A stretch of DNA of 64,000 nucleotides from Candidatus Omnitrophota bacterium (GCA_003598025.1 QZKH01000006.1:44035-108034), one strand, 5' to 3'. Counted from the stretch's first letter, positions 3,432 to 63,317 are shown. Notes: generated by a model from the letters alone, not told the origin. Made by a program: numbers and translations.

Positions 3432-3504
3432 GTTAGTTCATAGTTCATTGTTCATAGAATATGCCATATCCATAAACCATCAACTATGAACCATGAACTA
3501 ATAT
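3432..3504. repeat. GTTCAT/ATGAAC palindromic intergenic element (family 1), copy A.
   Basis: gttcatagttcattgttcatag...ccatatccataaaccatcaactatgaaccatgaactaatat. The core is shared almost identically with the copies at 22333-22477 and 62195-62273. Confidence 0.8.
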
Positions 3505-3541
3505 TCCTTGCCATTTCCCCATATTTATGTAAAATTTACTC

Positions 3542-4075
3542 ATGCCTGTTATTAAATTAAAACCCGTCAAAGTAAGCCGCAAATTATTTAAGCTGCTAGA
3601 ACGCCGCAAACTAATAAAGACATTCTCGCCATCTAATAAGGTGTTAAATGTCAAACCCGGGCATGGTTATGTCGATACGGTATACGCTTGCTCTGAGGAA
3701 TATGGCCCGCATAAATTGATCTGCGTTGGTTTGAATTCCAGTAAAATCAGGCTGGCTTCGCATCCGGATAAAGAAGATTTTATTCTTATTAATAATATCC
3801 GGAAGTCAAAACCTTTATATATTGTGATAGGCTTGTATAAGCATGATATCATTCAGAATAAGGTTAAATCAGGTAAATTAACCGCTAAAGATTTCATTAT
3901 GTTAAATATCAAGCACAATGATATCCATACCTGTGTTTTTACCATGCTCGAAGGGACTGTGCATTGGGAAGCTACGACTAAGGGAAGGGGCAATTCTCCG
4001 TTTTTCTTTGTAACTGAACCCGCCAGACTAAGAATGGATTTCATAGACTTGTGCGAGTATAAGGTGGAGATATAA
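3542..4075 (+). CDS. Hypothetical protein, 177 aa, AT-rich orphan ORF with no recognisable domain.
   Basis: Clean ORF, but no Shine-Dalgarno-like motif (AAGGAG/GGAGG-type) was seen upstream of the ATG. Composition is AT-rich relative to neighbours. It is bracketed on both sides by GTTCAT-type repeat elements (3432-3504 and 4089-4327). Confidence 0.45.
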   Translation: MPVIKLKPVKVSRKLFKLLERRKLIKTFSPSNKVLNVKPGHGYVDTVYACSEEYGPHKLICVGLNSSKIRLASHPDKEDFILINNIRKSKPLYIVIGLYKHDIIQNKVKSGKLTAKDFIMLNIKHNDIHTCVFTMLEGTVHWEATTKGRGNSPFFFVTEPARLRMDFIDLCEYKVEI

Positions 4076-4088
4076 TATTGGTTCATGG

Positions 4089-4327
4089 TTCATAGAATAT
4101 GGAGAGTAGCTAGTCACAAAGACACAAGGACGCAAGGACACAAAGCCACAAGAAAAGCATAGTTTAATCGTTGATTCGTTTAATAGTTTATTCGTTAATC
4201 TAGGCTTCTTCGGTTCAACGAGTCAACTAGTCAACGGGTAAACGAATAAGAAGAAATAGGTTCTTAAGATCGTTATAAAGACACCTTACGCACTACGCTA
4301 TACGCAATACGAACTGTGAACTAATAT
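4089..4327. repeat. Composite element. A family-1 arm and a family-2 CACAAGGACA repeat (4122-4166) are interrupted by a nested approx 105-nt inverted-repeat insertion (4170-4276) and then resume (4277-4327) with ...CGCTATACGCAATACGAACTGTGAACTAATAT.
   Basis: Family-2 halves match 42784-42860 and 48772-48850. The inserted segment has its own arms (ttattcgttaat ... aaacgaataag). Confidence 0.7.
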
Positions 4328-4330
4328 CCC

Positions 4331-4358
4331 TTGACACTTTAATTTTTTAAGATAATAT
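4331..4358 (+). promoter_or_regulatory. Candidate sigma70-type promoter (TTGACA-16-TAATAT) for the gltB-paralog gene, leaving a approx 165-nt leader.
   Basis: cccTTGACActttaattttttaagaTAATATcat immediately after the repeat terminus gaactaatat. Confidence 0.4.
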
Positions 4359-4523
4359 CATTATAAGTATTTGAAGTGGCCTTAAGAAGCGAAGTTGCTT
4401 TATTAGGTCTAAGACAAAGACGTCCGCAAATATAAAGGGAGGTCTTTTTTATTTTTTTGGCCTTAGTTGCATAACATATAGGCAACATCTGCCTATAATA
4501 TAGTCAGAGAAAGGAGAATAGCT

Positions 4524-6110
4524 ATGAATCTAAGGACTCCTGGCGGAAATGATGCCAGCAGAACGTTTAATCGTTCCAAAAATGTAGTGCCTTGTTCCGG
4601 ATTATGTTCAAGGTGTCTTGAGTCATGCAGGGGTAATTGCGAGGTCTTCAAGTCTTCTTTTAGAGGCAGGGAAGTTATATATCCAGGGCCTTTTGGGGAG
4701 GTAACAGCCGGAGGCGATAAGGATTACCCGGTTGATTATTCACATATTAACATACATGGCTATGCCCAGGGAGCAAAAGGTTTACCCAAGGGTGTTAGCG
4801 CAGGCCCTGATACGGCAATATTCCCGGCAGTAGATACTCAGACCGAATACGGCTGGGATAAAAAAGTAAAAATGAAGGCGCCTATTTTTACCGGCGCTTT
4901 AGGTTCAACTGAAATCGCCCGTAAAAATTGGGAGCATTTTGCGATTGGCGCTGCTATTTCAGGCGTAACAATTGTATGCGGCGAGAACGTTTGCGGGATT
5001 GACCCTAAACTGGAGTTAGACAGCAAAGGAAAGGTCGCAAGCGCCCCTGATATGGACAGGAGAATAGAAGTCTATAAGAGATTTCATGACGGCTATGGCG
5101 AAATTCTAGTGCAGATGAACGTTGAGGATACAAGGCTTGGAGTCGCTGAATATGTACACAAAAAACATAAGCTTGATACCATTGAATTAAAATGGGGGCA
5201 GGGTGCTAAGTGTATCGGCGGTGAAATAAAAGTTAAAAGCCTTGAAAGAGCGTTAGAATTAAAGAAAAGAGGTTATATAGTCACCCCTGATCCTACGATA
5301 AAGGCGAATCAGGAAGCTTTTAAAGCCGGGGCAATCAAAGAGTTTGAAAGGCATTCGCGCCTCGGATTTGTTTCAGAGGAAGCCTTTATGAAGGAAGTCA
5401 AGCGTTTAAGGGATATAGGTTTTAAGAGAGTTACATTAAAAACAGGCGCTTATTCCATGGTTGAGCTTGCCCAGGCAATAAAGTTTTCTTCGCAGGCCAA
5501 AATCGACCTTTTGACTATCGATGGAGCCCCCGGCGGCACAGGTATGAGCCCATGGAGGATGATGCAGGAGTGGGGTATACCTACATTCTATCTGCAGGCT
5601 TTAGCTTATGAATTCTGCGAGAAGCTGGCTAAAAAGAAAAAGAGAGTTCCGGATATAGCTATTGCCGGAGGATTCGCTTTAGAAGACCATGTCTTTAAGG
5701 CTATAGCAATGGGCGCTCCTTATGTAAAAGCAGTATGCATGGGAAGGGCGCTTATGATACCCGGATTCGTTGGGAAAAACATAACAGAATGGATTAAAGG
5801 TAATACTTTACCGCCCACGGTGTCTGAATTCGGAAAAACCCCCGAGGAAATCTTTGTCTGTTATGAAGAGCTCTCCGAAAAATATGGCAATGATATGAAA
5901 GATATCCCGTTAGGAGCAGTTGCCATCTACACTTTCTCGCAACGTATAAAAGTAGGTCTTCAGCAGCTTATGGCAGGCTCGCGGAACTTTAACTTGAGTA
6001 CGATCTCAAGGAAGGATTTAATGAGTTTGACAAAGGAAGCTGAAGAGGTTAGCGGCATTCCTTATGTTATGGATGCTTATAGGAAAGAAGCAGAGAAAAT
6101 ATTAGCATAA
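4524..6110 (+). CDS. Standalone glutamate-synthase-family FMN-domain protein with a Cys-rich N-terminus (probable Fe-S site).
   Basis: LTIDGAPGGTGMSP matches the GltS FMN-domain signature ([12 protein letters not shown]). N-terminal CSGLCSRCLESCRGNC Cys cluster. Strong RBS AAAGGAGAA upstream of the ATG. Confidence 0.75.
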   Translation: MNLRTPGGNDASRTFNRSKNVVPCSGLCSRCLESCRGNCEVFKSSFRGREVIYPGPFGEVTAGGDKDYPVDYSHINIHGYAQGAKGLPKGVSAGPDTAIFPAVDTQTEYGWDKKVKMKAPIFTGALGSTEIARKNWEHFAIGAAISGVTIVCGENVCGIDPKLELDSKGKVASAPDMDRRIEVYKRFHDGYGEILVQMNVEDTRLGVAEYVHKKHKLDTIELKWGQGAKCIGGEIKVKSLERALELKKRGYIVTPDPTIKANQEAFKAGAIKEFERHSRLGFVSEEAFMKEVKRLRDIGFKRVTLKTGAYSMVELAQAIKFSSQAKIDLLTIDGAPGGTGMSPWRMMQEWGIPTFYLQALAYEFCEKLAKKKKRVPDIAIAGGFALEDHVFKAIAMGAPYVKAVCMGRALMIPGFVGKNITEWIKGNTLPPTVSEFGKTPEEIFVCYEELSEKYGNDMKDIPLGAVAIYTFSQRIKVGLQQLMAGSRNFNLSTISRKDLMSLTKEAEEVSGIPYVMDAYRKEAEKILA

Positions 6111-6130
6111 TTTTCTTTGCGAAGCAAAAT

Positions 6131-6168
6131 TAAAGCGCCTTGTCTTACTGACAGGGCGCTTTAATTTT
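6131..6168 (+). terminator. Rho-independent terminator after the gltB-paralog gene.
   Basis: aaagcgccttgtcttactgacagggcgcttt followed by aatttta. 8-11 bp GC-containing stem. Confidence 0.5.
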
Positions 6169-6287
6169 ATCAAGATTTAATCGGTAAGCCAGCCGATAAA
6201 ATTACAAATCTCAACTCACAAATCACAAGCCCAAGATGTAATATTTATGGCTTTAAATTTCGATTATATGGTAGTAAAATACTTGAG

Positions 6288-8237
6288 ATGGATAAGCATG
6301 CCGCCATAGATAATTTCCTTAGAAATCTCAGGATGGTCCTTAATAATGCTTTTATGTATAATAAGGAACATCCTTATTTTCTTAAATCAGTAGATTTGTT
6401 TAAAGGCAGCCTGGATGCCTTGTTTTCTTTAATCTCCCCCCTGAAAATCGGATTTACTCCTTCCTCGCTGTTTATCGGAAGCGAACATTTAGAAAGCCAG
6501 CCTTTGTATGAAGAAATAGCCAGAATATTCCATAACCGTAAGATTAAGAGCATCGAGATAAAAGATAATGTTACCACGGAAGAATTGGTTGATTTTCTCT
6601 CTACGGTAACCATGCCTGTCAGGGATTTGATCCAGCAAGGTAACATAAGGGCAATCTTTAATAAAGCAAAATTCCCTGATTTTCTAGTCGAAGAACTCGA
6701 TTATTCCATATTTTTAAGCGAGCAAGGAAGCGAACTTAAGGACCTATGGGGCAGCTTCTTGAGGGAAGCCGTTGTTAATAACGATTCGGACAGGATAGCA
6801 GACCTATCCGATAACTTCGGTACTGTCGTAAGAAAACTGAGCAGTAAGGATTTCTTAGATGACCAGCGGCTGCAAGCAGACGTAAAAGATTTCCTTAAGC
6901 ATCTTAAGGAATCACAAAGGGATAAATTTTATCAGTGCTCAAAAGAGATATTCAAATGGGCTATGAATAATAAACATAATCTGGATAATGAGCAGCTTGA
7001 TAAGATGAAAGCCATGCTTAAAGAGCTTGAAGACAGTGAGTTTGCCCGTCTTTTTTCGGAAGAGATACTTGAAGACGATAAGTTTGATCTTTTAAGTTTC
7101 CAGCTTTTCTCCAGGTTTATAGTAGAAGGCAGGCATAATAATGTAAGCAACCATTTAGCTAACGACAAGGCATTAAAAGACAACCTTAAGGACAGCCTTT
7201 CCGTTAAGAACAAGGTAAAAGAGCTGCTCTCTGCCCCTGAGGCGGAGATGGGTACCTCTAAAATTTTTCACAACACGCTCAAAATTTTGCTTACAAACAT
7301 AACTTATGAAGAAGGCATTTATTTCGACAGGAAACTATTAGAGGTAAATTATCGTTTTGTGCTAGTATCGATTTTTAGCACGGAAGAGGAGATGGGTAAA
7401 TTAAAGATTGTCGCCAATAGGTTGTCTCAGGTAGTCGAGCATGATAAGCAGGACATGGATCTTGATTGGTTGGTCACGGTGCTTGAGGCAATCAACGCTA
7501 AAAAGAAAAACTTTAGCCGAGGTTATAAAGAATTCTCGGATTTAGAAAAAAGATTAGCTAACTTTGTTGAGACGATGTTTTGGCAGGGCAGCATTTCTTT
7601 ACAGATGCAGAAATTAGTTGATTCTCTGGAAGTAACATCCATGGATTCCCATTTTTACTTAGAAAAGATGTTCGTCTATGGCCAAATAAATCAAAATGCC
7701 ATTAAGCTCTTCCTCAGGTTCTTTCCTTCAGATATCGCAATCTTTTATAAGAATATACAAGACAATGCTTATAAGACTGAAATGATGGCTGTGTTAACCG
7801 AGGCATTAAAAGGGCTAAAACACCATCTCGTTTTGGATATCTTAAAGACCATTTATAGCACCCCCAACCAATTCTTAAAAATTGAGGCTCTCAGGGCCAT
7901 GGCGGATAATAAAATAATTGACCAGGCATTCCTCTTAAATGTGATATCAGGGCAGGATATTACTTTGAAAAAAGGGGCTGTATATGCGCTGCTTAACGAA
8001 TCTGAAAGCCTTAAAAAGGCAATAGCTATTCTTTTAGATATCCCCAGCCCATTTGGGATAAGAAATCATATTATTATTGAAAACCTGCAGATTGTTGATG
8101 AGCTTATTTTGAGAGAAGCAATCAACAGCGTTATCGGGCTAAGCAACAGGAGATTTTTCTGGAATAAGGCGCTGAGAGAAAAGGCAGCTCAAACCCTAAG
8201 GAAATTAAATGTTAGAACAGGTAGAGAAGGCATTTAA
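6288..8237 (+). CDS. Hypothetical 649-aa protein. The N-terminus resembles the DUF3391-type domain found in front of HD-GYP domains; the C-terminal third has HEAT/PBS-like helical repeats; there is no catalytic domain.
   Basis: The N-terminal approx 110 aa align position-by-position with the N-terminus of the downstream HD-GYP protein (F..L...L..A..Y...H..F..SVD..Y.SL pattern). C-terminal EALRAMADNK / AVYALLNES repeats. Confidence 0.5.
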   Translation: MDKHAAIDNFLRNLRMVLNNAFMYNKEHPYFLKSVDLFKGSLDALFSLISPLKIGFTPSSLFIGSEHLESQPLYEEIARIFHNRKIKSIEIKDNVTTEELVDFLSTVTMPVRDLIQQGNIRAIFNKAKFPDFLVEELDYSIFLSEQGSELKDLWGSFLREAVVNNDSDRIADLSDNFGTVVRKLSSKDFLDDQRLQADVKDFLKHLKESQRDKFYQCSKEIFKWAMNNKHNLDNEQLDKMKAMLKELEDSEFARLFSEEILEDDKFDLLSFQLFSRFIVEGRHNNVSNHLANDKALKDNLKDSLSVKNKVKELLSAPEAEMGTSKIFHNTLKILLTNITYEEGIYFDRKLLEVNYRFVLVSIFSTEEEMGKLKIVANRLSQVVEHDKQDMDLDWLVTVLEAINAKKKNFSRGYKEFSDLEKRLANFVETMFWQGSISLQMQKLVDSLEVTSMDSHFYLEKMFVYGQINQNAIKLFLRFFPSDIAIFYKNIQDNAYKTEMMAVLTEALKGLKHHLVLDILKTIYSTPNQFLKIEALRAMADNKIIDQAFLLNVISGQDITLKKGAVYALLNESESLKKAIAILLDIPSPFGIRNHIIIENLQIVDELILREAINSVIGLSNRRFFWNKALREKAAQTLRKLNVRTGREGI

Positions 8238-9543
8238 AGATTTACTGGCATCTTTGCAATTGGCTAAATTATACGGGATCCAGCATAAGATATTTAGAGA
8301 TTCTGTGGATAAAGCCTATTTAAGCCTGGCTAAGGCGCTGGAAGGAAGAAGCGAACTGGTTATAGGCATTATTGGCGAAGAGCTGGCTTTTGAAAAAGAG
8401 ATACTATTTGGATTAAGCAAGGCTATAGGCCCGGCAGTGGGTTATTTAAAGAACTTGGGTATTGAAAGGATATCATTCGGGAGCAATGTTCAGAAGGATG
8501 AACTTGAGAAATTCATTGAATTTTTGGCTTCCAAAAAAGATACTGCTATAGACCAGCAGGGGTTAGATTTCGGGTCTTTAGGCATAAGGAACATTGTCAT
8601 CGGGAAACTCACCGTTCTTGGTAAAGACAAAGTTGATGAGTTAGGCATAAAGGCCGTAGATTATATGAATATATACGGTTCGGCTGCTGATATGGCGCAT
8701 AAGTCTTTTTCTTCCATGCTTGAAGGAGAGGCGCTTGATGCCTTGGCGGTAAAGTTAGCGCTTAATAATATATTAGAGAACCTGGCAGTTTATCATAATG
8801 AATTTTTCAAGATTGTAGCCTTACGCCGGCATGACCCTCAGACGCACATACACCTTATTAATGTTGCGACAATAGCAATGTACTTTGCCTCCAGGCTTGG
8901 TTTTAGCAAGGCTGATATACTGGACATCGGGATGTCCGGATTATTCCATGATATCGGCAAACTCTATATCTCCCACGGGATACTTACTAAAACAGATAAG
9001 CTTACCAATGAGGAATTTGCAAAAATAAAGAGCCATACTATATTTGGCGCAGAAATTTTATTGGAACATATAGAATCACTGGGGATACTGCCTGCAGTTG
9101 TTTCTTTTGAGCACCATCTTAAGTACGATATGACAGGTTATCCCAGAGTTAACTATTCCCGCAGGCCCCATATAGCCTCTTTGATTGTTTCTATATGCGA
9201 TGTTTATGATGCTTTATTTTCAAGAAGGACATATAAAGAGGATTATTCGCCGGAAAACGTCTATAATATAATGATTAAGGATAAAAATACTGCTTTTGAA
9301 CCGCGCCTTGTAGAGAGATTTTTTAAAATAATGGGTGTTTGGTATATAGGCTGTGTGGTTTCCCTGAGCGATGGCAGGATTGCCGTAGTCCGGGAGCAGA
9401 ATGAAGACGATATCAGGAGGCCAAAAGTAGAGGTAGTTTTCCCTAAAGATAGAAAAGAATTTATTGATCTGAAAGAGAACTCATCGCTTGAGATAAAGCG
9501 CAGCCTTAATCCCTGGACGGAAGCCAGGGATTATGTGTCTTAG
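8209..9543 (+). CDS. HD-GYP domain phosphodiesterase (c-di-GMP family) with a DUF3391-like N-terminal domain.
   Basis: HDIGK metal-binding motif and HHLKYDMTGYPR (HD-GYP signature). Overlaps the upstream ORF by 29 nt in another frame. Confidence 0.8.
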   Translation: MLEQVEKAFKDLLASLQLAKLYGIQHKIFRDSVDKAYLSLAKALEGRSELVIGIIGEELAFEKEILFGLSKAIGPAVGYLKNLGIERISFGSNVQKDELEKFIEFLASKKDTAIDQQGLDFGSLGIRNIVIGKLTVLGKDKVDELGIKAVDYMNIYGSAADMAHKSFSSMLEGEALDALAVKLALNNILENLAVYHNEFFKIVALRRHDPQTHIHLINVATIAMYFASRLGFSKADILDIGMSGLFHDIGKLYISHGILTKTDKLTNEEFAKIKSHTIFGAEILLEHIESLGILPAVVSFEHHLKYDMTGYPRVNYSRRPHIASLIVSICDVYDALFSRRTYKEDYSPENVYNIMIKDKNTAFEPRLVERFFKIMGVWYIGCVVSLSDGRIAVVREQNEDDIRRPKVEVVFPKDRKEFIDLKENSSLEIKRSLNPWTEARDYVS

Positions 9544-9545
9544 TC

Positions 9546-9620
9546 CATAGTTCACAGATCACGGTTCACAGAAATATTTATCCATTCCCGTGAACTGTGC
9601 ACAGTGAACTATGAACCAAT
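9546..9620. repeat. Family-1 element, GTTCAC/GTGAAC variant, copy C.
   Basis: catagttcacagatcacggttcacag...cccgtgaactgtgcacagtgaactatgaacc. Left GTTCAC units mirrored by right GTGAAC units. Confidence 0.75.
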
Positions 9621-9631
9621 ACTTATTCCCA

Positions 9632-9659
9632 TTGACTTTTAAACCGGATATGTTATAAT
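9632..9659 (+). promoter_or_regulatory. Candidate promoter (TTGACT-16-TATAAT) for pyrG.
   Basis: cattgacttttaaaccggatatgttataatt, positioned approx 40 nt upstream of a terminator hairpin and approx 130 nt upstream of the pyrG ATG. Confidence 0.4.
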
Positions 9660-9696
9660 TATTTTAATAGTTCAATGCTGAGCTATTAATGACAAT

Positions 9697-22286: not shown

Positions 22287-22332
22287 GAAAGAATAATAAC
22301 AGAGGAAGAGGATAGTTGCAATAAATTTTATT

Positions 22333-22477
22333 AGTTCATAGATAATAGTTCATAGATATGAGCGATTCATAATAGTTAACCAGGACCAAGTGTTATAACC
22401 AGAAGCCCGTATCAATGAACAATGAACCATCAACTATGAACTAATAACTATGATCTATGAACTAATAACTATGAACC
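22333..22477. repeat. Family-1 element, copy D (long; in the divergent promoter region between the Gfo/lpxB operon and the msbA-like gene).
   Basis: gttcatagataatagttcatagatatgag...cccgtatcaatgaacaatgaaccatcaactatgaactaataactatgatctatgaactaataactatgaacc. Confidence 0.8.
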
Positions 22478-22539
22478 AATTTATCTATTGCCCTTCTCCA
22501 AAACCTATGCTAAAATCAGCTTTTCGAAAGGAATAAAAG

Positions 22540-27476: not shown

Positions 27477-27675
27477 CGAATTCGCTGAAAGCGAATGAGT
27501 TCCGAGGCTCCTTCTTTGAGATTCAGAGACGAGGCAGTACAAAAAATCGAGTCCCGAGAACCCGTTGTTCTTACAATTTGGTGCGAGGGGAAAATAGATA
27601 CGGCATATCGTTTATTGCAGATAGATATAATTAATGACCGATAAGCGATAAGCTATAGGCGATATGCGAGATTAC

Positions 27676-37232: not shown

Positions 37233-37260
37233 TAAATTTCTGCTTTCGCAGAAATTTACA
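37233..37260 (+). terminator. Perfect 12-bp hairpin right after the aldolase stop. There is no U-tract, so this is a terminator-like or RNA-processing structure.
   Basis: gtaaatttctgc-tttc-gcagaaatttac. Confidence 0.3.
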
Positions 37261-37341
37261 GTTCATAGTTCATAGTTGATGGTTCATGGCTGATAGAATG
37301 ATATATCTATGATCTATGAACTATGATCTATGAACTAATAT
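37261..37341. repeat. Family-1 element, copy E (core in inverted orientation), ending directly at the ilvD RBS.
   Basis: gttcatagttcatagttgatggttcatgg is the reverse complement of the ccatgaaccatcaactatgaac core. Ends ...ctatgatctatgaactaatat followed by aaggagacgatATG. Confidence 0.8.
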
Positions 37342-40737: not shown

Positions 40738-40746
40738 TTAGAGGAC

Positions 40747-40824
40747 AGTTCACAGTTGACAGTGCATAGCTTCTTGTTAGTTTTGCTTAGCCTGTGAACT
40801 GTAAACTGTGCACCGTGAACTAAA
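40747..40824. repeat. Family-1 element, copy F, occupying the whole ilvB-ilvN intergenic space and abutting the ilvN ATG.
   Basis: cagttcacagttgacagtgcatagc...cctgtgaactgtaaactgtgcaccgtgaactaaa then ATG at 40825. Confidence 0.75.
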
Positions 40825-41316: not shown

Positions 41317-42309
41317 GTGATAAAGATATATTACGACAAAGACGCTGATTTAGGCATTTTAAAGGATAAGACTGTCGCAATAATCGGTTACGGTATACAG
41401 GGCAGGGGACAAGCTCTTTGCCTCCGTGATTCAGGATGTAATGTAATAGTTTCGGAATTACCAGGCACGGTTAATTATGAGCAGGCTTTAAACGACGGTT
41501 TTAAGCCCGTGCCGGTTGAAGAAGCGGCAAAACAAGCTGATATTATTCAGATCCTTACACAGGATCATGTTCAGGCTAAAGTCTACAATGAAAAAATAAA
41601 GCCCAACCTTAAAAAAGGTAAAGCATTATGTTTTTCTCACGGTTTTAATATCCATTTTAAGCAGATAAAACCGCCAAAGACAGTTGACGTATTCATGATC
41701 GCTCCTAAAGGCCCGGGCGCATTGGTAAGAAGAATGTTTGAAGAGGGCAAAGGTGTGCCTTCTCTGGTAGCTATATTTCAGGATGCAACAGGAAATGCCC
41801 TAAAAATAGCTCTGGCTTACGCAAAAGGACTGGGCGCGACCAGGGCAGGGGTAATCGAAACTACGTTTAAAGAAGAGACGGAGACTGATCTTTTTGGGGA
41901 GCAGGCGGTTCTTTGCGGCGGGGTAACAGAATTGATCAGGGCTGGTTTTGATACTTTGGTTGAAGCAGGTTATCAGCCTGAAATCGCCTATTTTGAAGTG
42001 CTCCACGAATTAAAACTTATCACTGATTTGATACAGGAGCGTGGTATAAGCGGTATGCGCAGGGGCGTTTCTAATACTGCCTGTTACGGAGACCTGACAA
42101 GAGGTAAAAGGATAATCACAGAGAAAACAAGAAAAGAGATGAAAAAGATCCTAAAAGAGATACAGAAAGGCAAGTTTGCCAAAGAGTGGATAAAAGAGAA
42201 TGAAGAAGGCAGGCCCAATTTCAACAAGCTGATTGCCGAGGGCGATAATCATCAGATTGAAAAGGTTGGTAAGCAGTTAAGAGAGATGATGCCTTGGATG
42301 AAGAAGTAA
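41317..42309 (+). CDS. ilvC: Ketol-acid reductoisomerase.
   Basis: [21 protein letters not shown] Rossmann motif and [14 protein letters not shown] start with AAAGGAGGGAG RBS. Confidence 0.9.
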
Positions 42310-42869
42310 GTCACAGGATAATGGTAAGAAGAAAATTAATAGTGCTGGTTTTGATTATTAATGTGTTGGTTTTTACGCGCGCCTATGGGCAGGATATTAG
42401 TTTTGGCGCCGAGGCTACAAAACCGGAAACCGAAAGTAATTTTTTCAAAATAAGCGAGATAAAAAGAGGTAACTTTGGCCCGGGGCAGTATTCGACCGAG
42501 GGTTTTGTTGTCAGAGTTTATACTTGCCCAGACTGTCCTGCCGGTGCTGTTTGTAAGCCGTGCATGAAGGATAATATTGTGATCTCTGAGAATAACCAGG
42601 AGCTTAAGGATTATTCCGGCTTGACTAACAGCGAGTTGATAATCTTCACTAATCATGTGACTGAATTCGAGATTGGCAGCAGTTATAAATTTTTAATAAA
42701 TATAACCAATAATAAATCTACATTAGAAAACATCAACGATATTGAGTTGGTAAGTTTTAGCGAGATAGTTGATAGAAAAGTGGGTCACAAAGACACAAGG
42801 ACACAAAGTCACAAGAACGCTATACTCAATACGCACTACGCTATACGCAATACGTTCAGTGAACAATGA
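42294..42869 (+). CDS. Hypothetical secreted/lipo-protein. The C-terminal approx 30 aa and the stop are encoded by a repeat element.
   Basis: Signal-peptide-like [20 protein letters not shown] near the N-terminus (true start possibly 42321). Tail ..[29 protein letters not shown] is a read-through of the CACAAGGACA / CGCTATACGCAATACG repeat. Confidence 0.4.
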
Positions 42870-42880
42870 ACCAAGCTGAT
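42778..42880. repeat. Family-2 + family-1 terminal element, copy G, overlapping the 3' end of ORF 42294-42869 and the leuA start region.
   Basis: gtcacaaagacacaaggacacaaagtcacaagaacgctatactcaatacgcactacgctatacgcaatacgttcagtgaacaatgaacc. Confidence 0.8.
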
Positions 42881-47976: not shown

Positions 47977-48696
47977 ATGCCGATATTAAACGGCTCCGCC
48001 TATTATATATCCAAAGAGATTGGTAAGGCCATAGGGGATTACGGGCTCATCTCCGATGGGGATAAAATCGCCGTTGCCGTTTCAGGAGGCAAAGACAGTA
48101 TTACATTGCTTAATTTATTGAATGAGCGCAGGAAATTCGCCCCGGTTAACTATGAAATCATGGCAATTCACGTGGATTTAGGCTATCCCCGTTCCGTCTC
48201 GAATAAACTAAAGAAATATTTTAATAAGATAGGCGTCAATTACCATATAGAAAAGAACGATGTACTGAAGAAAACCGGGCGTTCGGATATCTCTTGTTTC
48301 TGGTGTTCCTGGAACAGGAGAAAGTCATTGTTTGAATCGGCAGCCAGGCTTGGGTTTTCAAAAGTGGCCCTGGGACATCATATGGATGACATAATTGAAA
48401 CGATTTTGATGAACATGTTTTTTCAGGGCGAGATATCAGCTATGCTCCCAAAGCAGGAATTATTCGGAGGCAAGATAACGTTAATACGCCCGCTTGCTTA
48501 TGTGCAGGAATGCATGATCAAAAAATATACAAAAGAATTTTCTGTTGAATATGATAAATGCATTTGCCCGAATTCTGCAATTTCCAACCGCAGGCGTATG
48601 CGTAGGATAATAAGCCAGCTTAAAAAGGCTTGCCCGGATATAAAAAAGAACATATTCAGGAGCGTAAGGAGAGTCAAGGCGGATTATTTGCTTTAA
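47977..48696 (+). CDS. ttcA: PP-loop ATPase of the TtcA family (tRNA 2-thiolation).
   Basis: IAVAVSGGKDSITLL (SGGxDS PP-loop). CFWCSWNRRKSL...ALGHHMDDIIETILMNMFFQG matches the TtcA CxxC / GHH.DD block. Confidence 0.75.
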   Translation: MPILNGSAYYISKEIGKAIGDYGLISDGDKIAVAVSGGKDSITLLNLLNERRKFAPVNYEIMAIHVDLGYPRSVSNKLKKYFNKIGVNYHIEKNDVLKKTGRSDISCFWCSWNRRKSLFESAARLGFSKVALGHHMDDIIETILMNMFFQGEISAMLPKQELFGGKITLIRPLAYVQECMIKKYTKEFSVEYDKCICPNSAISNRRRMRRIISQLKKACPDIKKNIFRSVRRVKADYLL

Positions 48697-48726
48697 ACGG
48701 GTAGAGCAGAGTGGTATAATTTTATT

Positions 48727-48872
48727 GGTTCACAGTGCACAGTTCATGGTTCATAGAAATAGATAAAGTAGGTAGCCACAAGGACACACGACACAGGCTC
48801 ATAAGAACACCATACTCAATACGCACCACGCTATACGCAATACGTTCAGTGAACTGTGAACATTGAACTAGC
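48727..48872. repeat. Family-1 arm + family-2 + family-1 terminal element, copy H, upstream of rmuC.
   Basis: ggttcacagtgcacagttcatggttcatagaaatag...gccacaaggacacacgacacaggctcataagaacaccatactcaatacgcaccacgctatacgcaatacgttcagtgaactgtgaacattgaac. Confidence 0.8.
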
Positions 48873-57434: not shown

Positions 57435-57451
57435 GACAAGAGAGGCATGTT

Positions 57452-57724
57452 ATGTTCGGCCCTTTAACTGTAAAACCTGGAGCAAGCAAGAAAAACAAGA
57501 CTGGTTCCTGGAGGACAGAATCAAAGCCTAAGTTCCTGCAGAAAAACTGTATTGCCTGCAAGATGTGCGTATTGATATGCCCTGAGGCCTGCATTACCGG
57601 CTCAGAGAAGAATACATATATCTGCGATTATGCTTATTGCAAGGGTTGCGGTAATTGCGTGGCGATTTGCCCTAAGCAGGACATTATTATGGTCAAAGAA
57701 GATACATCTCAGGAGAAAAAATAA
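57452..57724 (+). CDS. porD: 2-oxoacid:ferredoxin oxidoreductase delta subunit (2x[4Fe-4S] ferredoxin).
   Basis: CIACKMCVLICP and CKGCGNCVAICP motifs. Confidence 0.8.
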   Translation: MFGPLTVKPGASKKNKTGSWRTESKPKFLQKNCIACKMCVLICPEACITGSEKNTYICDYAYCKGCGNCVAICPKQDIIMVKEDTSQEKK

Positions 57725-57729
57725 TAGCC

Positions 57730-58965
57730 ATGAAAGAATTTGTTGAAGGTTCGCATGCAGTAGCAGAAATAGTAAAGTTATGTAAGCCGGCAGTTATATC
57801 AGCTTATCCGATCACGCCCCAGACGCATATTGTTGAGGATCTTGCACAGATGGTCGCTGACGGAGAATTAAATTCCCAATTTGTCAATGTTGAATCCGAA
57901 CATTCTGCTGCTTCTGTTGTATTGGGTGCGGTTGCAACCGGGGTAAGGGCCTATACCGCTACCAGTTCTCAGGGGCTTTTTTACATGGCAGAGGTAGTGT
58001 TTAACATAGCAGGATTGCGTCTTCCGGTGATTATGACTTGCGCAAACAGGGCAATATCTGCGCCTATAAATATCTGGAATGATCAGCAGGATTCAGTCTC
58101 TCTAAGGGACAGCGGCTGGATCCAGGTATACGCGGAAAATATCCAGGAAGCAGTTGATCTGCACCTTATAGCTTATAAGTTAGCCGAGGATAAATCTATT
58201 ATGCTGCCGGTTATGGTTTGTATGGATGGTTTTATCCTTACGCATGGTATCGAAACAGTAGATATCCCCGGGCAAAAAGAAGTTGATGCTTTCTTGCCGC
58301 CTTATAAAGCGTTATATAAGCTTGATCCGGAGAAGCCCATAACTTTAGGCCCGTTAGTTGACCCCGATTCCTATATGGAGACCCGGTATGCAGTTGAACA
58401 GACCCAGAAAAAAGCTTTATCAATGATTCCGGGTATAGCCGCAGATTTTAACAAAACATTTGGCCGTAATTATAACGGCTTAATAGAAGAATACCACACT
58501 AAAGATGCAGAGCGTGTTATTGTTGCCATGGGTTCGGTATGCGGGACAGTCAAGGATGTTGTTGATGAGCTGAGGAGTAAGGGCAAAAAGGTAGGATTGC
58601 TGAAAATAACAACTTATAGGCCATTTCCATGCGATGCTATTTATGCTGCCCTCAAAAATATCCCCAAAGTCGCGGTATTAGACAGGGCATTATCGCTTGG
58701 CTCATTTTCTCCGCTTTTAACGGAGATAAGAGCGATATTCACTTCAAAGAAAAAGAAGCCCCAGGTTATAAGCGGCTTTAATATCGGCTTAGGCGGCAGG
58801 GATATTACTACGCATTCCATAAAAGAAGTTTTCAGGCTTCTAACAAATAAAGAGCTTACATCAGAATATATTGATTTGAAACCAGAGCTATTGAAGGAGA
58901 ATTATGATATCTCCGACTCCGCTGGCGGTCTAAGCGAGCGGCGAAAGGAGCCAAGCTGTGAGTAA
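57730..58965 (+). CDS. porA: 2-oxoacid:ferredoxin oxidoreductase alpha subunit.
   Basis: [27 protein letters not shown]...[13 protein letters not shown] is canonical POR alpha. Confidence 0.85.
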
Positions 58966-59842
58966 TCATTTATTTGTAGCAGGTCATACCGCCTGTTCTG
59001 GATGCGGCCAGTCGATGGCAGCGCGTCTGGTAATAGATGCTGCTGGTCCGAATACGATTATTTCAAATAATACAGGCTGTCTGGAGGTTTTCTCAACAAA
59101 ATATCCGGAATCTGCCTGGGAGGTCCCCTGGATACATTCTTTGTTTGAAAACTCTTCTGCAGTAGCTTCCGGTATAGAAGCGGCGCTGAAATATTTAGGG
59201 ACAAAAGATAAAATAAACGTAATTGCCCAGGGTGGTGATGGCGGTACGGCTGATATCGGTCTACAAGCTTTATCAGGGATGTTTGAACGCGGCCATGATA
59301 TTCTATATGTTTGTTATGATAATGAAGCATATATGAATACGGGAGTTCAGAGAAGCGGCCTTACCCCTTTTGAAACCAACACTACTACCAGTCCTGCAGG
59401 CTCTCAATCTTTCGGTAATATAAGACCGAAAAAACCCATGCCGGAAATAGCTTTGGCGCATGGCATACCTTATGTAGCCACCTCTTCAGTAGTATTTCCT
59501 CAGGATATACAGCGTAAAGTGAAAAAGGCATTCTCTATAAAAGGGCCAAAGTATATACAAATACATGTCCCTTGCCCGTTAGGATGGAGACACGATTCTA
59601 GCCTCACTTATGAGATAGCGAAATTAGCAGTTGAAACAGGGCTTTATCCTATAATAGAATACGAAAACGGGGTGCTGGCCCAGCGCAAAATCAAGCCAAA
59701 GCCAGTTGAGGAATATCTAAAGAAACAGGGTAGGTTTAAGCACCTATTAAACAACCCGGAACTTATTAAAAAAATCCAGGATATTGCAGACAATAATATC
59801 CTTAAATATAAACTTAGTTTGGAGAATCAAAGCAGCGTTTAA
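58958..59842 (+). CDS. porB: 2-oxoacid:ferredoxin oxidoreductase beta subunit (TPP-binding).
   Basis: [17 protein letters not shown] (Cys ligands of the proximal cluster) and the [13 protein letters not shown] motif. Confidence 0.85.
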
Positions 59843-59855
59843 AGGAGGTAATAAT

Positions 59856-60335
59856 ATGGGTAAACAGGCAAGAGCGATAGTTGATTTAAGTTTAAAGGAA
59901 CTGGTAAAAGACCTGCATAAGGCTTATTGTGATGAGTGGTTAGCTTTTTATTTGTACTGGTATATGGCGCAGACTGTTTCGGGTAAAGCTTATGAAGATA
60001 TGAAGGAATTCCTGGAGAAAATCGCCAAGGATGAATTAGAGCATGCGCAGGAATTAGCAGATCTAATTACTAAATTAGGAGATGTACCTCCGGCAAATCC
60101 TATGGAACTGGAGAAACATGCAAATTTTCCGTATCTTATGCCGCCTAAAAATACTGCCGATATTAATAGGATGATCCGTATAGTAACCGAGGCTGAGTCT
60201 GGGGCAATAGAAGTTTATAATAAGATAGCCAAGAAAACATTAGGTAAAGATCATGTGACTTACCAGCTGGTTACGCACATACTTTCGGAAGAAGTCACGC
60301 ATGAAGAGATGTTTGAAAACCTGCAGGAAAGATAA
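59856..60335 (+). CDS. Ferritin-like diiron (Dps/ferritin superfamily) protein.
   Basis: Four-helix pattern with E..H ligands (DELEHAQE, EEVTHEE). RBS AAAGGAGG 7 nt upstream of the ATG at 59856. Confidence 0.55.
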   Translation: MGKQARAIVDLSLKELVKDLHKAYCDEWLAFYLYWYMAQTVSGKAYEDMKEFLEKIAKDELEHAQELADLITKLGDVPPANPMELEKHANFPYLMPPKNTADINRMIRIVTEAESGAIEVYNKIAKKTLGKDHVTYQLVTHILSEEVTHEEMFENLQER

Positions 60336-60355
60336 ATAACAGGAGGAAAATTATC

Positions 60356-60541
60356 ATGGCAAAAGTTACAGTGGATGCTTCAACTTGCGTAGGTTGCGGA
60401 ATTTGCGAACAAGCTTGTCCTGATGTGTTTGAAGTCCAGGGCGATGGGGTAGCTCATGTAAAAACCCAAGTATGTGCAACCTGCAATTTAGAAGAAATTG
60501 CTTTGCAGTGCCCGGTAAACGCTATAAAGGTAAGCAATTAA
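60356..60541 (+). CDS. Small single-cluster [4Fe-4S] ferredoxin.
   Basis: 61 aa. C.GCG.CEQACP...C..C, matching monocluster ferredoxins. RBS AGGAGGAAAA. Confidence 0.75.
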   Translation: MAKVTVDASTCVGCGICEQACPDVFEVQGDGVAHVKTQVCATCNLEEIALQCPVNAIKVSN

Positions 60542-61974
60542 AATAATTGGCTTTTCTGTTTTAAATCCACTAGGAATTTAACGAAAGCCTCTTCTTTCTT
60601 CTTCATCAAGAGTTGCTGCTGGAATTCTTCTTTAACTTCATTAAATTTCTGCTGGTCAATAGAAGTTGATGACTTTAGCCTTATCAGAAAATACCCGGAA
60701 GGCATTGATATTACATCGCTTATCTGATTATCTTTGAGGCTTCTGGCTTTAAGCCAGAAATTGTCGGAAGCACCTATACCTTCTATATAGCTGCCGAATT
60801 TAAACATATCCGTTGCGCCGTATTTTAATCCTATCTCTTTTGCAGTTTTCTCGAAGTTATTTAATTTTGCCGCCTCTTTGTCTGTTAAAAGCGATTCTTT
60901 AGCCTTTGTTATTTTATTTCTGGCAATATTAGCAGAGGCGTCTTTTACAAATCTTGATTTTACCGTATCCCCAATGTCTTTGAATAGCGGTATATAAGGA
61001 TCTTTTTTCCCTTTTAATCTCAATATAAAGAAGCTTTGCCCGCTCAGCAAGGGCTGAGTGAAATCCCCGGCTTTTAGCTGAGCGATCATATTGGCCAGTT
61101 CTGGAGCCCAGCCAAATCCCGGGATACCCTCGGCAGGGAAGAAATAGCCTGTTTCTTTTATTTCCAGCCCTAACTCTTTAGCTATGCCAGCAAAACTTTT
61201 TTCATCTAACAGCCTGCGATAAATATTTTTTAGCTCATCTTCATTAACAGCTTTATCATTCAGTTTTTGAGGTATTTGGATATACTCAACGTCGTAAGAA
61301 GCAGGCTTTTTAAACAGGTCTTTGTTCTGTTCGTAGTATGATTTTATTTCCTCTTCTGTTGGATTAATCTGGTTTTCATATGCTTCAGGAAGGGCGGCAA
61401 GATAATAAACACTTATCTTCTCATTGGTTTTTGCATATTCTTCCTGTAGTTCTTTATCGGTTATTTCTATACTCTTGGTAACGTCATTATAAAGTTTAAA
61501 TATGGTAAGGTTTTGACGCACCTGTTCTTCAAATTCCCTGGGCGGCGTATTGAAGAGCTCATATTGCAAAGCCAAAGAATAAGTTTGCGGGTCGAACTGC
61601 CCGTTTTTTTGGAAGAGGGGGAATTTTTGTATCCAGTCTATCACTTCTTTATCATCTACTTTTATCCTGTGTTTTTTGGCTTCTAAGAGAAGCACAAGCC
61701 TTTCCCATGCCTGTCCCTCAAAATCGAACATATTCTTTATTTTGTCAAAGTTATCACCGTATTGAAGCAGCGCCAGGTTCCTGGAAGCTTTCATCGCATC
61801 CATGAAGTCCTGGGCAGATATTTTTTTTCCAAAAATCTTGCCTACGAAACCCGCTTTTTTTTGGTTATCAAATATTACCCCTGAGCCCCAGAAGACAAAC
61901 GCAGGGATTATTATTAAAGCCAGGACTATCCATATTTTTTTAGCCGTTTTTTTATCTCTTAATTGTTTAAGCAT
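60538..61974 (-). CDS. ppiD: PpiD/SurA-like periplasmic chaperone / peptidyl-prolyl isomerase with an N-terminal membrane anchor.
   Basis: N-terminal KKIWIVLALIIIPAFVFWG anchor. Long SurA-like chaperone region. A parvulin-like block near the C-terminus (GYFLIRL). Confidence 0.65.
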   Translation of the reverse strand: MLKQLRDKKTAKKIWIVLALIIIPAFVFWGSGVIFDNQKKAGFVGKIFGKKISAQDFMDAMKASRNLALLQYGDNFDKIKNMFDFEGQAWERLVLLLEAKKHRIKVDDKEVIDWIQKFPLFQKNGQFDPQTYSLALQYELFNTPPREFEEQVRQNLTIFKLYNDVTKSIEITDKELQEEYAKTNEKISVYYLAALPEAYENQINPTEEEIKSYYEQNKDLFKKPASYDVEYIQIPQKLNDKAVNEDELKNIYRRLLDEKSFAGIAKELGLEIKETGYFFPAEGIPGFGWAPELANMIAQLKAGDFTQPLLSGQSFFILRLKGKKDPYIPLFKDIGDTVKSRFVKDASANIARNKITKAKESLLTDKEAAKLNNFEKTAKEIGLKYGATDMFKFGSYIEGIGASDNFWLKARSLKDNQISDVISMPSGYFLIRLKSSTSIDQQKFNEVKEEFQQQLLMKKKEEAFVKFLVDLKQKSQLF

Positions 61975-61984
61975 CCTATCCTCC

Positions 61985-62110
61985 TAGCGTAGAAACGCAT
62001 ACCGAGCTATCCTTTAAGCACGGGTGTAGCGTAGAAACGCATACGTGTAGTAAACATGCACTGTGCCTTCCTGTGGGCACAGGTGCCGAGCTATCCTTTA
62101 AGCACGGGTG
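61985..62110. repeat. Pair of interleaved direct repeats upstream of ppiD (- strand): an 18-nt repeat (tagcgtagaaacgcatac, x2) and a 26-nt repeat (ccgagctatcctttaagcacgggtgt, x2), with a central hairpin (cactgtgcc..gggcacagg).
   Basis: Exact repeated strings at 61985-62002 / 62026-62043 and 62003-62028 / 62085-62110. Confidence 0.7.
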
Positions 62111-62194
62111 TTAATGAACTAAATAATTAGTTTAATAATTATATTCCAAAACAAGAGGAAAGGGAAGGAATAAAAAGTAGGCTTAAGCAGGAGT

Positions 62195-62273
62195 TAGTTC
62201 ATAGTTCATAGTTCAAAGTTCATAGAAATAGGCCGTATCCATGAACAATGAACCATCAACTATGAACTAAAAT
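62195..62273. repeat. Family-1 element, copy I, upstream of hisG.
   Basis: tagttcatagttcatagttcaaagttcatagaaataggccgtatccatgaacaatgaaccatcaactatgaactaaaat. Confidence 0.8.
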
Positions 62274-62357
62274 CATCTTTTTCCTTTACAAACTAAATCC
62301 CTGCAAGTATAATAACTTCGCTATAAAGAAAAATTCAAAAGGGGAGAGATTTAAGTT

Positions 62358-63251
62358 ATGGCGACAAAACAGGAGCAGGTGTTAAAATTAGGCTTGCCTA
62401 AGGGCAGCCTTCAGGAATCGACTTTCAGGATGTTCAAGAAGGCCGGATTTAATATCAATTTATCTTCGGAGAGGTCATATTTTCCTTCCATTGACGATCC
62501 TCAGATAAATGTAGTCCTGCTTAGAGCCCAAGAGATGTCCCGCTATATACAGGACGGCGCCTTGGATTGCGGAATAACGGGAAATGATTGGGTCATGGAG
62601 AATGATTCCGATGTAGTTACTATAACCGGGCTTATGTATGCTAAACAGAGCCTTAATAAGGTAAAATGGGTAGTAGCCGTCCCTATAGAGGCCGGGATAA
62701 CATCCATAAAACAACTTAACGGCAAGCGTATAGCTACAGAGCTGGTCAATGTAACAAAAAAATATTTTAAGAAGAATAAGATAGATGTAGATGTGGAATT
62801 CAGCTGGGGAGCTACTGAAGTAAAAGTTACCGCAGGTTTAGTCGATGCAATAGTAGAATTGACGGAAACAGGCAGGAGCTTAAAGGCGAATAAACTCATT
62901 CCGATCGATACAGTGTGCGAATCTACTACGCAGTTTATCGCAAATAAAGATTCTTATAAGGATAACTGGAAAAGAAGCAAGATGGAACAGATTGAGCTGC
63001 TGTTAAAAGGGGCTATAGCAGCCGAAGAGAAGGTCGGTATCAAGATGAACGTTAAAAAAGCTCAGCTTGATAAAGTAATTGCTTTGTTGCCGGCACTTAA
63101 AAAACCTACTATCTCTAATCTTTCTGAAGATGGCTGGTATGCTATCGACACGGTAATTGACGAGAGGGTAGTCCGGGTATTGATACCTCAGTTGAGGAAG
63201 GCAGGGGCTGAGGGGATTATAGAGTATCCGTTGAATAAGGTGATATATTAA
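62358..63251 (+). CDS. hisG: ATP phosphoribosyltransferase, long form with C-terminal regulatory domain.
   Basis: LKLGLPKGSLQE...DCGITGNDW N-terminus. 297 aa is consistent with long-form HisG. RBS AAAAGGGGAGAG. Confidence 0.9.
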   Translation: MATKQEQVLKLGLPKGSLQESTFRMFKKAGFNINLSSERSYFPSIDDPQINVVLLRAQEMSRYIQDGALDCGITGNDWVMENDSDVVTITGLMYAKQSLNKVKWVVAVPIEAGITSIKQLNGKRIATELVNVTKKYFKKNKIDVDVEFSWGATEVKVTAGLVDAIVELTETGRSLKANKLIPIDTVCESTTQFIANKDSYKDNWKRSKMEQIELLLKGAIAAEEKVGIKMNVKKAQLDKVIALLPALKKPTISNLSEDGWYAIDTVIDERVVRVLIPQLRKAGAEGIIEYPLNKVIY

Positions 63252-63253
63252 TT

Positions 63254-63317
63254 AGTTCACGGTTCATGGTTCACAGTTCACGGCTGTGAACTACGTTCTG
63301 TGCACTGTGAACTAATA
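63254..63317. repeat. Family-1 element, GTTCAC variant, copy J, between hisG and the micro-ORF.
   Basis: agttcacggttcatggttcacagttcacggctgtgaactacgttctgtgcactgtgaactaatat. Near-perfect long inverted repeat. Confidence 0.8.

Follow-up and report, generated by a model that had tools for sequence, protein, structure and literature searches.

Intergenic palindromes with tandem-heptamer arms in Candidatus Omnitrophota: a probable dispersed family of REP- and STRR-like elements

The 64-kb stretch of DNA analysed here (Candidatus Omnitrophota bacterium, GCA_003598025.1 QZKH01000006.1:44035-108034; in the following called the window) contains ten intergenic elements, A to J, whose arms are built from tandem 7-nt units. 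They occur at a density of one 60-250-nt repeat per about 6 kb and fill 10 of the about 21 truly non-coding gaps of at least 60 nt in the window. We regard it as likely that the ten loci represent one dispersed, non-coding family of palindromes resembling both repetitive extragenic palindromes (REP) and short tandemly repeated repetitive (STRR) sequences, which spread by copying, is placed where such DNA is tolerated and has generic effects. In composition the elements belong with STRR sequences, in behaviour with REPs and miniature inverted-repeat transposable elements (MITEs); the class occurs in many phyla, uses several alternative units and shows rapid turnover at orthologous spacers.

An earlier note on this DNA had listed ten loci with tandem GTTCAY units, and all of them are present where it placed them, including the correctly assigned neighbours of B (a Glu_synthase-domain gene) and C (pyrG). 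The GTTCAY arrays could be confirmed, but the true unit is a heptamer that includes the separator base. Each arm consists of 2-5 tandem heptamers, which read R-GTTCA-Y in the 5' arm and have the complementary sequence in the 3' arm; the separator (6 bases + 1) is usually a purine on the left arm. Period 7 was detected by Tandem Repeats Finder in the arms of A, D, E, F, I and J, while C was assigned by reading. When the whole window was searched for GTTCAYNGTTCAY with at most one mismatch and 100 shuffles as null, 41 matches were obtained compared to 0.61 expected (maximum of 3 in the 100 shuffles), and all 41 lie inside elements A-J. Every copy, 60-250 nt in size and not a kilobase-scale repeat as had been stated, is an imperfect palindrome. 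An element is thereby the same sequence on either strand, with hairpin arms of about 15-35 nt and a loop that often opens with AGAATAT or AGAAATAG.

Predicted folding energies reach from -19 to -34 kcal/mol in seven elements (A, C, D, E, F, I and J), which have z-scores between -4 and -7.5. Folding is weaker in B and H (z about -2) because of their large loop inserts, whereas G, the left arm of which is mostly lost, shows no significant fold (z = 0). The conserved terminus YRTGAACTAAWAT occurs six times compared to 0.02 expected, always on the + strand and in A, B, E, F, I and J; C, D, G and H terminate in variants of it. At the left, the elements carry an inverted version of the right end that differs by 1-2 changes (for example ATATTGGTTCA in B), and this mirror relation identifies the terminus, first taken as a conserved end next to start codons, as one half of a terminal inverted repeat that reaches 4-5 nt past the heptamers. 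Hence, the elements combine terminal inverted repeats with a lack of coding capacity, as MITEs do. An Rfam 15 covariance search of the window returned three tRNAs alone, both at the gathering threshold and at E <= 1, and identity with a curated RNA family was rejected on these grounds.

Relatedness of the copies extends beyond the repeat unit. D and I agree at 38 of 40 positions in a stretch that comprises the right arm and the non-repetitive loop; A resembles both closely, and E aligns to this core solely as reverse complement, in agreement with the inverted copy proposed before. A and F possess a common left flank, TAATTAGAGG. The composite elements B, G and H contain a common two-part loop module, in which CACAAGGA-like octamers are followed by ATACGCA-like heptamers; in its best stretch 24 of 25 nt are identical, and TACGCACYACGCTATACGCAATACG is essentially the same in all three copies. 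Nested inside the two-part module of B is an additional hairpin of 8-nt units, a unit family which recurs as hairpins in the ilvB-ilvN spacer of one related locus (L123) and in the ilvC-leuA spacer of another (L132). Common non-repeat loop and flank sequence together with nesting is evidence that the family spread by copying, and on this comparison the copies are related by descent, through duplication, beyond the unit itself. The dispersed, non-coding, hairpin-forming, homologous and nested copies bear out the MITE/REP-like behaviour that had been suggested for them.

Orthologous spacers were compared in five Omnitrophota loci (L123, L124, L130, L131 and L132; 88-92% IlvC identity), which keep the gene order but not the spacer contents. 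In the aldolase-ilvD spacer, the place of the GTTCAT hairpin E is taken by a (NCGTAAC)n...(GTTACGN)n hairpin in L124 and by a hairpin of GTCACCA units in L132, with L123 not covered. The ilvB-ilvN spacer, 87 nt in the window and occupied by the GTTCAC hairpin F, holds an 8-mer-unit hairpin (TGTTTCGN / AACGA) in L123, is empty and 18 nt long in L124 and has no repeat hairpin in L132; the filled and the empty site are too diverged for a base-level comparison. Between ilvC and leuA, where G follows a small open reading frame (ORF) in the window, L123 has a small ORF but no repeat hairpin, L124 a conserved leader and L132 an 8-mer hairpin of the B-inner family. The ttcA-rmuC spacer with element H measures 159 nt, that of L124 67 nt without a repeat (L123 and L132 not covered). 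L130 and L131 show almost no such hairpins. A GTTCAY array is absent from all five loci; two other Omnitrophota metagenome-assembled genomes (MAGs; L076/L113 and L084) do carry GTTCAY arrays. As for MITEs, there is thus presence and absence at orthologous sites, namely at ilvB-ilvN and ttcA-rmuC. Taken together, the compared spacers indicate that hairpins with tandem-repeat arms are a class of many unit families that come and go at the same permissive sites.

Two features of the related genomes are recorded here in their own right. A conserved two-hairpin leader of about 120 nt with the core GGRATAAATTCG ... CTCATTTAAA precedes ilvB, ilvC or leuA in related Omnitrophota (coordinates in Table 1). 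It is not present in the window, has no Rfam match and is a candidate for a new leader or riboswitch-like RNA of branched-chain amino-acid genes. In the GC-rich Omnitrophota MAG L084, the 5' part of a coding region beside hisG contains six tandem copies of the heptamer GCTGGCT.

To define the distribution of the family, 185,579 species genomes (596 Gb) were scanned with the pattern GTTCAYNGTTCAYN{8,38}RTGAACNRTGAAC, for which an information-content estimate with uniform base composition gives a chance expectation of about one match in 596 Gb. At least 120 matches were found. Those listed belong to roughly 85 genomes from more than 10 phyla (manual count of accession prefixes) and comprise Bacteroidota (Mucilaginibacter, Chitinophagaceae, Saprospiraceae, Prevotella), Cyanobacteria, Planctomycetota, Methylomirabilota, Nitrospirota, Omnitrophota, Acidobacteriota and Verrucomicrobiota along with a few Firmicutes and Proteobacteria. 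Cultivable carriers are found in Mucilaginibacter, Niabella and Lacibacter. Since isolates with complete genomes, such as Mucilaginibacter sp. X5P1 (NZ_CP183230) and Petroclostridium sp. X23 (NZ_CP124862), are among the carriers, an assembly artefact does not account for the hairpins, and with copies in many other genomes the family is neither a local duplication artefact, as the earlier note had considered, nor specific to one genome. The foreign copies resemble the window elements down to GTTGAT/ATCAAC variant units and ends of the type ...CATCAACTATGAACTAA. Among 257 arms measured, 4 units are the most frequent number within a range of 2 to 5.

In the first 121 sources, the arm order was GTTCAY first by 142 to 1. 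A metagenome scan for the reverse arrangement yielded genuine hairpins among the matches listed, with units GATGAAC and AGTGAAC and typically of the form (GATGAAC)n...(GTTCATC)n. Given these hairpins, the idea of a constant polarity, with the GTTCAY units invariably in the 5' arm, was rejected; the two arrangements are separate families and do not reflect a rule. Viral contigs were scanned as well, with 5 matches for GTTCAY, 8 for the reverse arrangement (looser pattern), 9 for GATTCY and 33 for TCAGTY, compared to 1, 0 and 0 for the composition-matched permutations GTCTAY, CTTGAY and TGCTAY, respectively. In view of the TCAGTY and GATTCY counts, the idea that GTTCAY is uniquely special was dropped. 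The TCAGTY pattern corresponds to the TAACTGA unit of the literature in reverse complement, and in phage-like contigs TCAGTTA/TAACTGA hairpins lie between successive genes in the order stop codon, hairpin, Shine-Dalgarno sequence (SD), ATG, a layout that other unit families have as well. In the phage-like contigs L268, L280 and L293 (IMG/VR 3300025409_000011, 3300038427_000181; about 36 kb), a (TCAGTYN)n...(NRACTGA)n hairpin, which is the published TAACTGA repeat in hairpin form, was observed in this order in many successive spacers. About 35 additional unit types were picked up in the retrieved loci by a generic detector. In conclusion, a limited set of heptamers, of which GTTCAY is one member, recurs widely, the counts being small.

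Within the window, good sigma-70-type promoters begin 3-11 nt past the ends of A, B, C and I, and these four copies thus lie outside the 5' untranslated region (UTR) of the gene that follows. D has divergent promoters on either side, so that it is probably not transcribed, H comes just after a TG-extended -10 box and is therefore part of the 5' UTR of the rmuC-like gene, and E, F, G and J are located between cistrons. The closeness to -35 boxes, ribosome-binding sites and start codons that had been pointed out is thus real in the window, and transcription as 5'-UTR hairpins applies to H and, as intercistronic sequence, to E, F, G and J, but neither to A, B, C and I nor, probably, to D. In E, F, G, H and J, the right end comes within 0-12 nt of an SD or ATG, and the left end of A, B, C, F and J is just as tight, 0-12 nt behind the preceding stop. 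An element simply fills the spacer between a stop and the next signal.

A context set of 115 classifiable copies from other genomes, for which genes were called as longest ORFs, comprises 76 tandem, 24 convergent and 15 divergent spacers compared to 358/83/100 background gaps, a difference that is not significant (p = 0.18). Spacer types that match the background point to plain REP-like elements, the outcome which the earlier note had linked to placement at random with respect to gene starts. The copies lie at a median of 10.5 nt behind the upstream stop and, approximately, given the way in which genes were called, 23 nt ahead of the downstream start; 46 copies are nearer to the stop and 29 nearer to the start (p = 0.06). 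When the GTTCAY-first copies from genomes, the reverse arrangement from metagenomes and the TCAGTY copies from viral contigs are pooled, 54 convergent and 24 divergent spacers are obtained compared to a background of 83:100, raw counts that suggest a trend towards gene 3' ends, as known for REPs. No recurrent gene family or functional class was found beside elements in other genomes. The elements are aimed neither at gene starts nor at a functional class, so that the proposed regulatory or RNA-stability role tied to biosynthesis genes did not stand: stops are equally close, the neighbours are functionally unrelated and the ilv/leu spacers of relatives differ. The placement would rather reflect where such DNA is tolerated, from the stop to the promoter, ribosome-binding site or start, than the function of the downstream gene.

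To distinguish between the RNA and the DNA level, single stem mismatches were classified on the sense strand of tandem-spacer copies. Here, 31 mismatches of the G·U type face 32 of the A·C type, and two other unit families gave ratios of 15:11 and 13:7. This balance gives no sign of selection for pairing in the sense transcript. Complementarity between the arms amounts to 80%, and unit variants occupy matching positions in the two arms more often than in shuffles (414 concordant compared to 349 ± 12). Complementary arms with matched variants but no G·U bias fit a palindrome that is maintained at the DNA level, or young copies.

Under the explanation we favour, a dispersed palindrome family spread by copying, the transcribed copies (E, F, G, H and J, as well as A, B and C within the 3' UTRs of the genes before them) would form a long stem that no U-tract follows. 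In the manner of REP or STRR hairpins, this stem could halt 3' exonucleases, offer a substrate to RNase III or hinder ribosomes or RNA polymerase, and the outcome would be a non-specific adjustment of segmental mRNA stability and cistron coupling; these effects at the RNA level are proposed by analogy. At the DNA level, 7-nt slippage together with arm-to-arm template switching or conversion may maintain the heptamer arms. As 7 is not a multiple of 3, three units provide TAG (left arm) or TGA (right arm) in all frames, and all-frame stops would render insertions at gene ends harmless, as G shows.

Four other explanations have to be weighed. The elements could be shared cis-regulatory RNAs, that is leaders co-regulating amino-acid and nucleotide biosynthesis by attenuation, a stability switch or a common RNA-binding regulator. 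We judge this highly improbable. The right ends next to an SD or ATG in five copies, the promoter-proximal position of H and the orientation of all six exact termini towards downstream genes would agree with it, and translational control has been proposed for TAACTGA arrays before start codons (PMC4679880). However, A, B, C, D and I all precede the next promoter, D even standing between divergent ones, and the downstream genes include msbA, rmuC and hypothetical ORFs. Moreover, 21% of the foreign copies lie in convergent spacers, the distance to stops is shorter than that to starts, the ilv/leu spacers of relatives contain unrelated hairpins or no hairpin at all, and neither a G·U excess nor an Rfam match was found. 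Unconventional terminators, hairpins that end upstream transcription without a U-tract, are quite improbable as well. They would account for elements that begin 0-12 nt after stops, for the class-level enrichment in convergent and depletion in divergent spacers and for the fresh promoters behind A, B and C. Yet no terminator-like site was called at any element scanned in the window, and in other genomes no more than 4 of 76 copies show 5 or more T within the 8 nt that follow the stem; identity with intrinsic terminators was rejected for this missing U-tract. In addition, F, G and J are situated inside obvious operons (ilvB-ilvN, ilvC-leuA), where full termination would be harmful, and D is downstream of no gene.

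The same sequences could also be arrays of binding sites on the DNA, read by a nucleoid-associated, insulator-like or promoter-proximal activator protein that recognises the heptamer, with the palindrome as a by-product of head-to-head sites. Five copies end 3-11 nt upstream of a -35 box, a position at which UP elements and activators operate, D is bordered by promoters left and right, the hexamer is found in both arrangements (GTTCAY-first and RTGAAC-first), as expected for a reader of double-stranded DNA, and an RNA-type mismatch bias is lacking. Regulator-bound contiguous heptads are known, for example TTTTGAT in the ctx promoter. We nevertheless consider such arrays unlikely, since many unrelated units with the same architecture in the same spacers of relatives would require many proteins, a 7-bp spacing puts successive sites on different helix faces, half of the copies lie within operons with no promoter nearby, and no candidate protein was identified. 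Somewhat less unlikely, though still doubtful, is that each element grew in place from a terminator or stem by 7-nt slippage and quasi-palindrome template switching, the similar units being convergent. Heptanucleotides are the commonest long simple repeats in bacteria and are attributed to polymerase slippage (Mrazek 2007, as cited in PMC4679880), units differ between the orthologous spacers of relatives, no transposase or target-site duplication was found, and arm variants are position-matched without an RNA-type bias. What speaks for copying is the non-repeat sequence common to distant copies (the D/I loop, the A/F flank and the 70-nt module of B, G and H) and the occurrence of one 8-mer family at different sites in the window, L123 and L132. 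Furthermore, a few unit families dominate in viral contigs over the permutations, and the arm-length distribution is narrow.

Several observations weigh against the favoured explanation. The case for mobility is built on homology and nesting of the copies, with no transposase, target-site duplication or parent to accompany them. An autonomous parent with a GTTCAY arm, a gene and an RTGAAC arm was absent from the 0.92 Mb examined, and neither a transposase nor a recurrent neighbour protein family was found near elements in the fetched loci. The annotated genes of the window include no transposase, no gene for a REP-associated tyrosine transposase (RAYT) was seen in the available sequence, and the flanks, when read, show no consistent direct repeat but continue the palindrome. 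Outside the window, the remaining 9 kb of readable genome (about 73 kb in total) contain no copy. All six exact TGAACTAAWAT termini face the downstream gene, and seven of the eight copies that can be oriented have one orientation, as judged by reading of alignments. This bias hints at a strand-specific constraint which the explanation does not predict. Transcription and replication direction are inseparable here: across the window the genes point one way, and replication, judged by a GC skew that is positive throughout, probably follows them; in other phyla the TGAACTAA end was compared with gene direction, and 8 versus 4 cases are not significant. Generic slippage alone leaves the recurrence of the same heptamer across phyla unexplained. 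The context of foreign copies was derived from crudely called genes. Finally, the lack of a G·U bias and the untranscribed position of D speak against the need for a function as RNA.

STRR heptamer repeats have been known in cyanobacteria since about 1990, the classical units of STRR1-3 being CCCCAGT, TTGGTCA and CAACAGT, and to our knowledge their origin and function have never been explained. In filamentous cyanobacteria, STRR repeats of 7 bp pair into intergenic hairpins, which are located in the hupS-hupL spacer and upstream of hoxW near the 3' end of the gene before it; their function is described as unknown, with transcript stability, translational coupling or termination as proposals (PMC2670836). 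A Nostoc preprint reports heptamer arrays near promoters and start codons whose partner is unidentified. Among the kinds described, the window elements come closest to STRR and share with it the tandem 7-nt units in spacers, the hairpins near the 3' end of the preceding gene, the occurrence at many loci and the variation among close relatives. In contrast to STRR, they have an Omnitrophota host and the unit GTTCAY+N, the family is also found in Bacteroidota, Planctomycetota and Nitrospirota, and the copies are homologous elements with common loops and nested modules, beyond simple repeats. The restriction of STRR to cyanobacteria and to its units is historical rather than mechanistic. TAACTGA heptamers were described as direct repeats in Beggiatoaceae, Cyanobacteria and Bacteroidetes, with a single inverted case in the BOGUAY genome (MacGregor 2015, PMC4679880). 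These repeats, too, form intergenic arrays near starts with all-frame stops, a patchy cross-phylum spread and no known spreading mechanism; they differ from the present elements in their unit, as no rotation or reverse complement of GTTCAY+N matches, and in that the arrays here are always paired palindromes.

The REPs of Proteobacteria and their composite forms, bacterial interspersed mosaic elements (BIMEs) and REPINs, are mobilised by RAYT proteins, which are Y1 transposases, and REPs are sometimes found at the same spacer in related species with different sequence. Like them, the window elements are extragenic imperfect palindromes of high copy number, the wider class shows a trend towards positions behind stops in co-directional and convergent spacers, and mRNA stabilisation and termination are among the roles proposed for both. 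A REP consists of one palindrome of 20-40 nt that bears a conserved GTAG or CGTC tag (PMC3733652), whereas the present elements have arms of tandem heptamers, measure 60-250 nt, end in (A/T)TATTAGTTCA and show no GTAG/CGTC tag at the stem foot. Bacterial MITEs such as Correia, ERIC and Nezha are likewise small, non-coding, dispersed and nested, have terminal inverted repeats and occasionally extend ORFs; unlike in MITEs, no target-site duplication or related insertion sequence with matching ends was seen here, and the inverted repeats are internally tandem-repetitive. A literature search with the repeat as a sequence string returned primers only. Further candidates were dropped: integron attC sites, as the core sites stand in the opposite order and the neighbours are housekeeping genes; the Cheo/LexA box, which needs GAAC-N4-GTTC; CsrA sites in the CACAAGGA module, as the GGA motif is not conserved between B, G and H; and a similarity to the tRNA T-loop, owing to a misfit at position 58.

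The coordinates of all features are summarised in Table 1. The genes of the window are gltBD, a Glu_synthase-domain paralogue, pyrG, msbA, ilvD, ilvB, ilvN, ilvC, leuA, malQ, ttcA, an rmuC-like gene and hisG, and A precedes a 177-aa ORF without known identity. IlvC homologues at 85-92% identity are named Candidatus Omnitrophota/Omnitrophica, and an Omnitrophota MAG shows synteny for the neighbourhood of the SurA-like gene and hisG. At the foot of F and of J, a TAATTAG motif contains the stop codon. The small ORF between ilvC and leuA continues 33 codons past the end of its L123 homologue and ends at a TGA in the right arm of G. Start 42866 of leuA in the ORF table is an ATG inside G and probably an artefact, the likely true start being 42881. 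Similarly, the rmuC-like gene probably starts at ATG 48893, because the comparison with L124 supports this position and an SD (GGAGAG) precedes it, and the longest-ORF start GTG 48856 inside H would be an artefact. The product of the micro-ORF behind J had no match in a Pfam search and looks like a very small ribosomal-type protein.

Table 1. Coordinates of elements A to J, their parts and further features (positions in the window unless a related locus is named; dG in kcal/mol)
Feature	Coordinates	Strand	Structure	Position
A	3432-3504	.	3 left GTTCAT units, loop AGAATATGCCATATCC, 4 right units ending CATGAACTAATAT; dG -19.5, z -4.2	12 nt past gltD stop; 3 nt ahead of -35 TTGCCA (3508)
B (composite)	4079-4327	.	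outer GTTCAT arms 4079-4096 and 4305-4327	3 nt past ORF177 stop; 3 nt ahead of -35 TTGACA (4331) of Glu_synthase-domain gene
B, loop module part 1	4112-4155	+	CACAAGGA-like octamer array	also in G (42786-42814) and H (about 48778-48806)
B, nested inner hairpin	4159-4250	.	8-nt units, TCGTTNAT ... ATNAACGA	
B, loop module part 2	4277-4311	+	ATACGCA-like heptamer array; TACGCACYACGCTATACGCAATACG common to G and H	
C	9543-9620	.	GTTCAC type; dG -29.1, z -6.1	left end overlaps stop of HD-domain gene; about 11 nt ahead of TTGACT-16-TATAAT, upstream of pyrG
D	22332-22477	.	expanded right arm, period 7/14/21	flanked by divergent promoters (- strand 22321-22293, + strand 22488-22516)
E	37260-37341	.	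core inverted relative to A, D, I; dG -34.0, z -7.5	spacer of aldolase-like gene and ilvD; simple hairpin 37236-37259 before; SD 2 nt after end
F	40746-40824	.	GTTCAC type	fills ilvB-ilvN spacer from 8 nt past stop; ilvN ATG directly next
G (composite)	42762-42876	.	loop module as in B, H; degenerate left arm GAGATAGTTGATAGAA	left arm within ORF 42294-42869
H (composite)	48727-48872	.	loop module as in B, G	just downstream of TG-extended -10 promoter (48692-48720)
I	62194-62273	.	dG -28.3, z -6.2	divergent SurA-like/hisG spacer; ends 11 nt ahead of TTTACA-17-TATAAT (62285-62313)
J	63252-63318	.	GTTCAC type; dG -31.4, z -7.3	directly after hisG stop (TAA within TAATTAG); 12 nt ahead of SD of micro-ORF
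Small ORF	42294-42869	+	small secreted-looking Cys-rich protein; 37% identity to 152-aa ORF at same place in L123	between ilvC and leuA
Micro-ORF	63340-63441	+	33 aa, extremely basic, MPCGKKRKRRKIRTHKRKKARRRLRHLKKRAWS	right after J; SD GGAGG upstream
Direct repeats	61975-62150		two different repeats, GTAGCGTAGAAACGCATAC and GCCGAGCTATCCTTTAAGCACGGGTG, two copies each	SurA-like/hisG spacer, upstream of I
Heptamer array	6199-6228		CAAATCA-like, about 4 units, no inverted partner	after terminator-like hairpin
Heptamer array	27639-27669		CGATAAG, 4.4 units, no inverted partner	just before tRNA-Leu
Two-hairpin leader	L124 9862-10000 and 10994-11153; L123 1824-1990; L130 5683-5801			
Heptamer array	L084 4360-4400		GCTGGCT x6	

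For the window, the finding means that the elements are not a regulon signal. It also calls for caution in annotation, as such hairpins can extend ORFs, supply false starts, as for leuA and the rmuC-like gene, and mimic leaders. As a tentative extension, to which we attach a low probability, tandem-heptamer hairpins might form one coherent cross-phylum class with a small set of units (GTTCAYR, the reverse arrangement, TCAGTTA/TAACTGA and GATTCYG), which are amplified, exchanged or re-invented in more than 10 phyla and in phage-like contigs and replace one another. If so, an unrecognised mechanism would be implied, either a structure-specific mobilisation or generation of DNA in 7-nt steps or a conserved heptamer-hairpin factor akin to RAYT for REPs. 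The cross-phylum recurrence and the replacement of units at the same sites make the old STRR question testable by comparative data.

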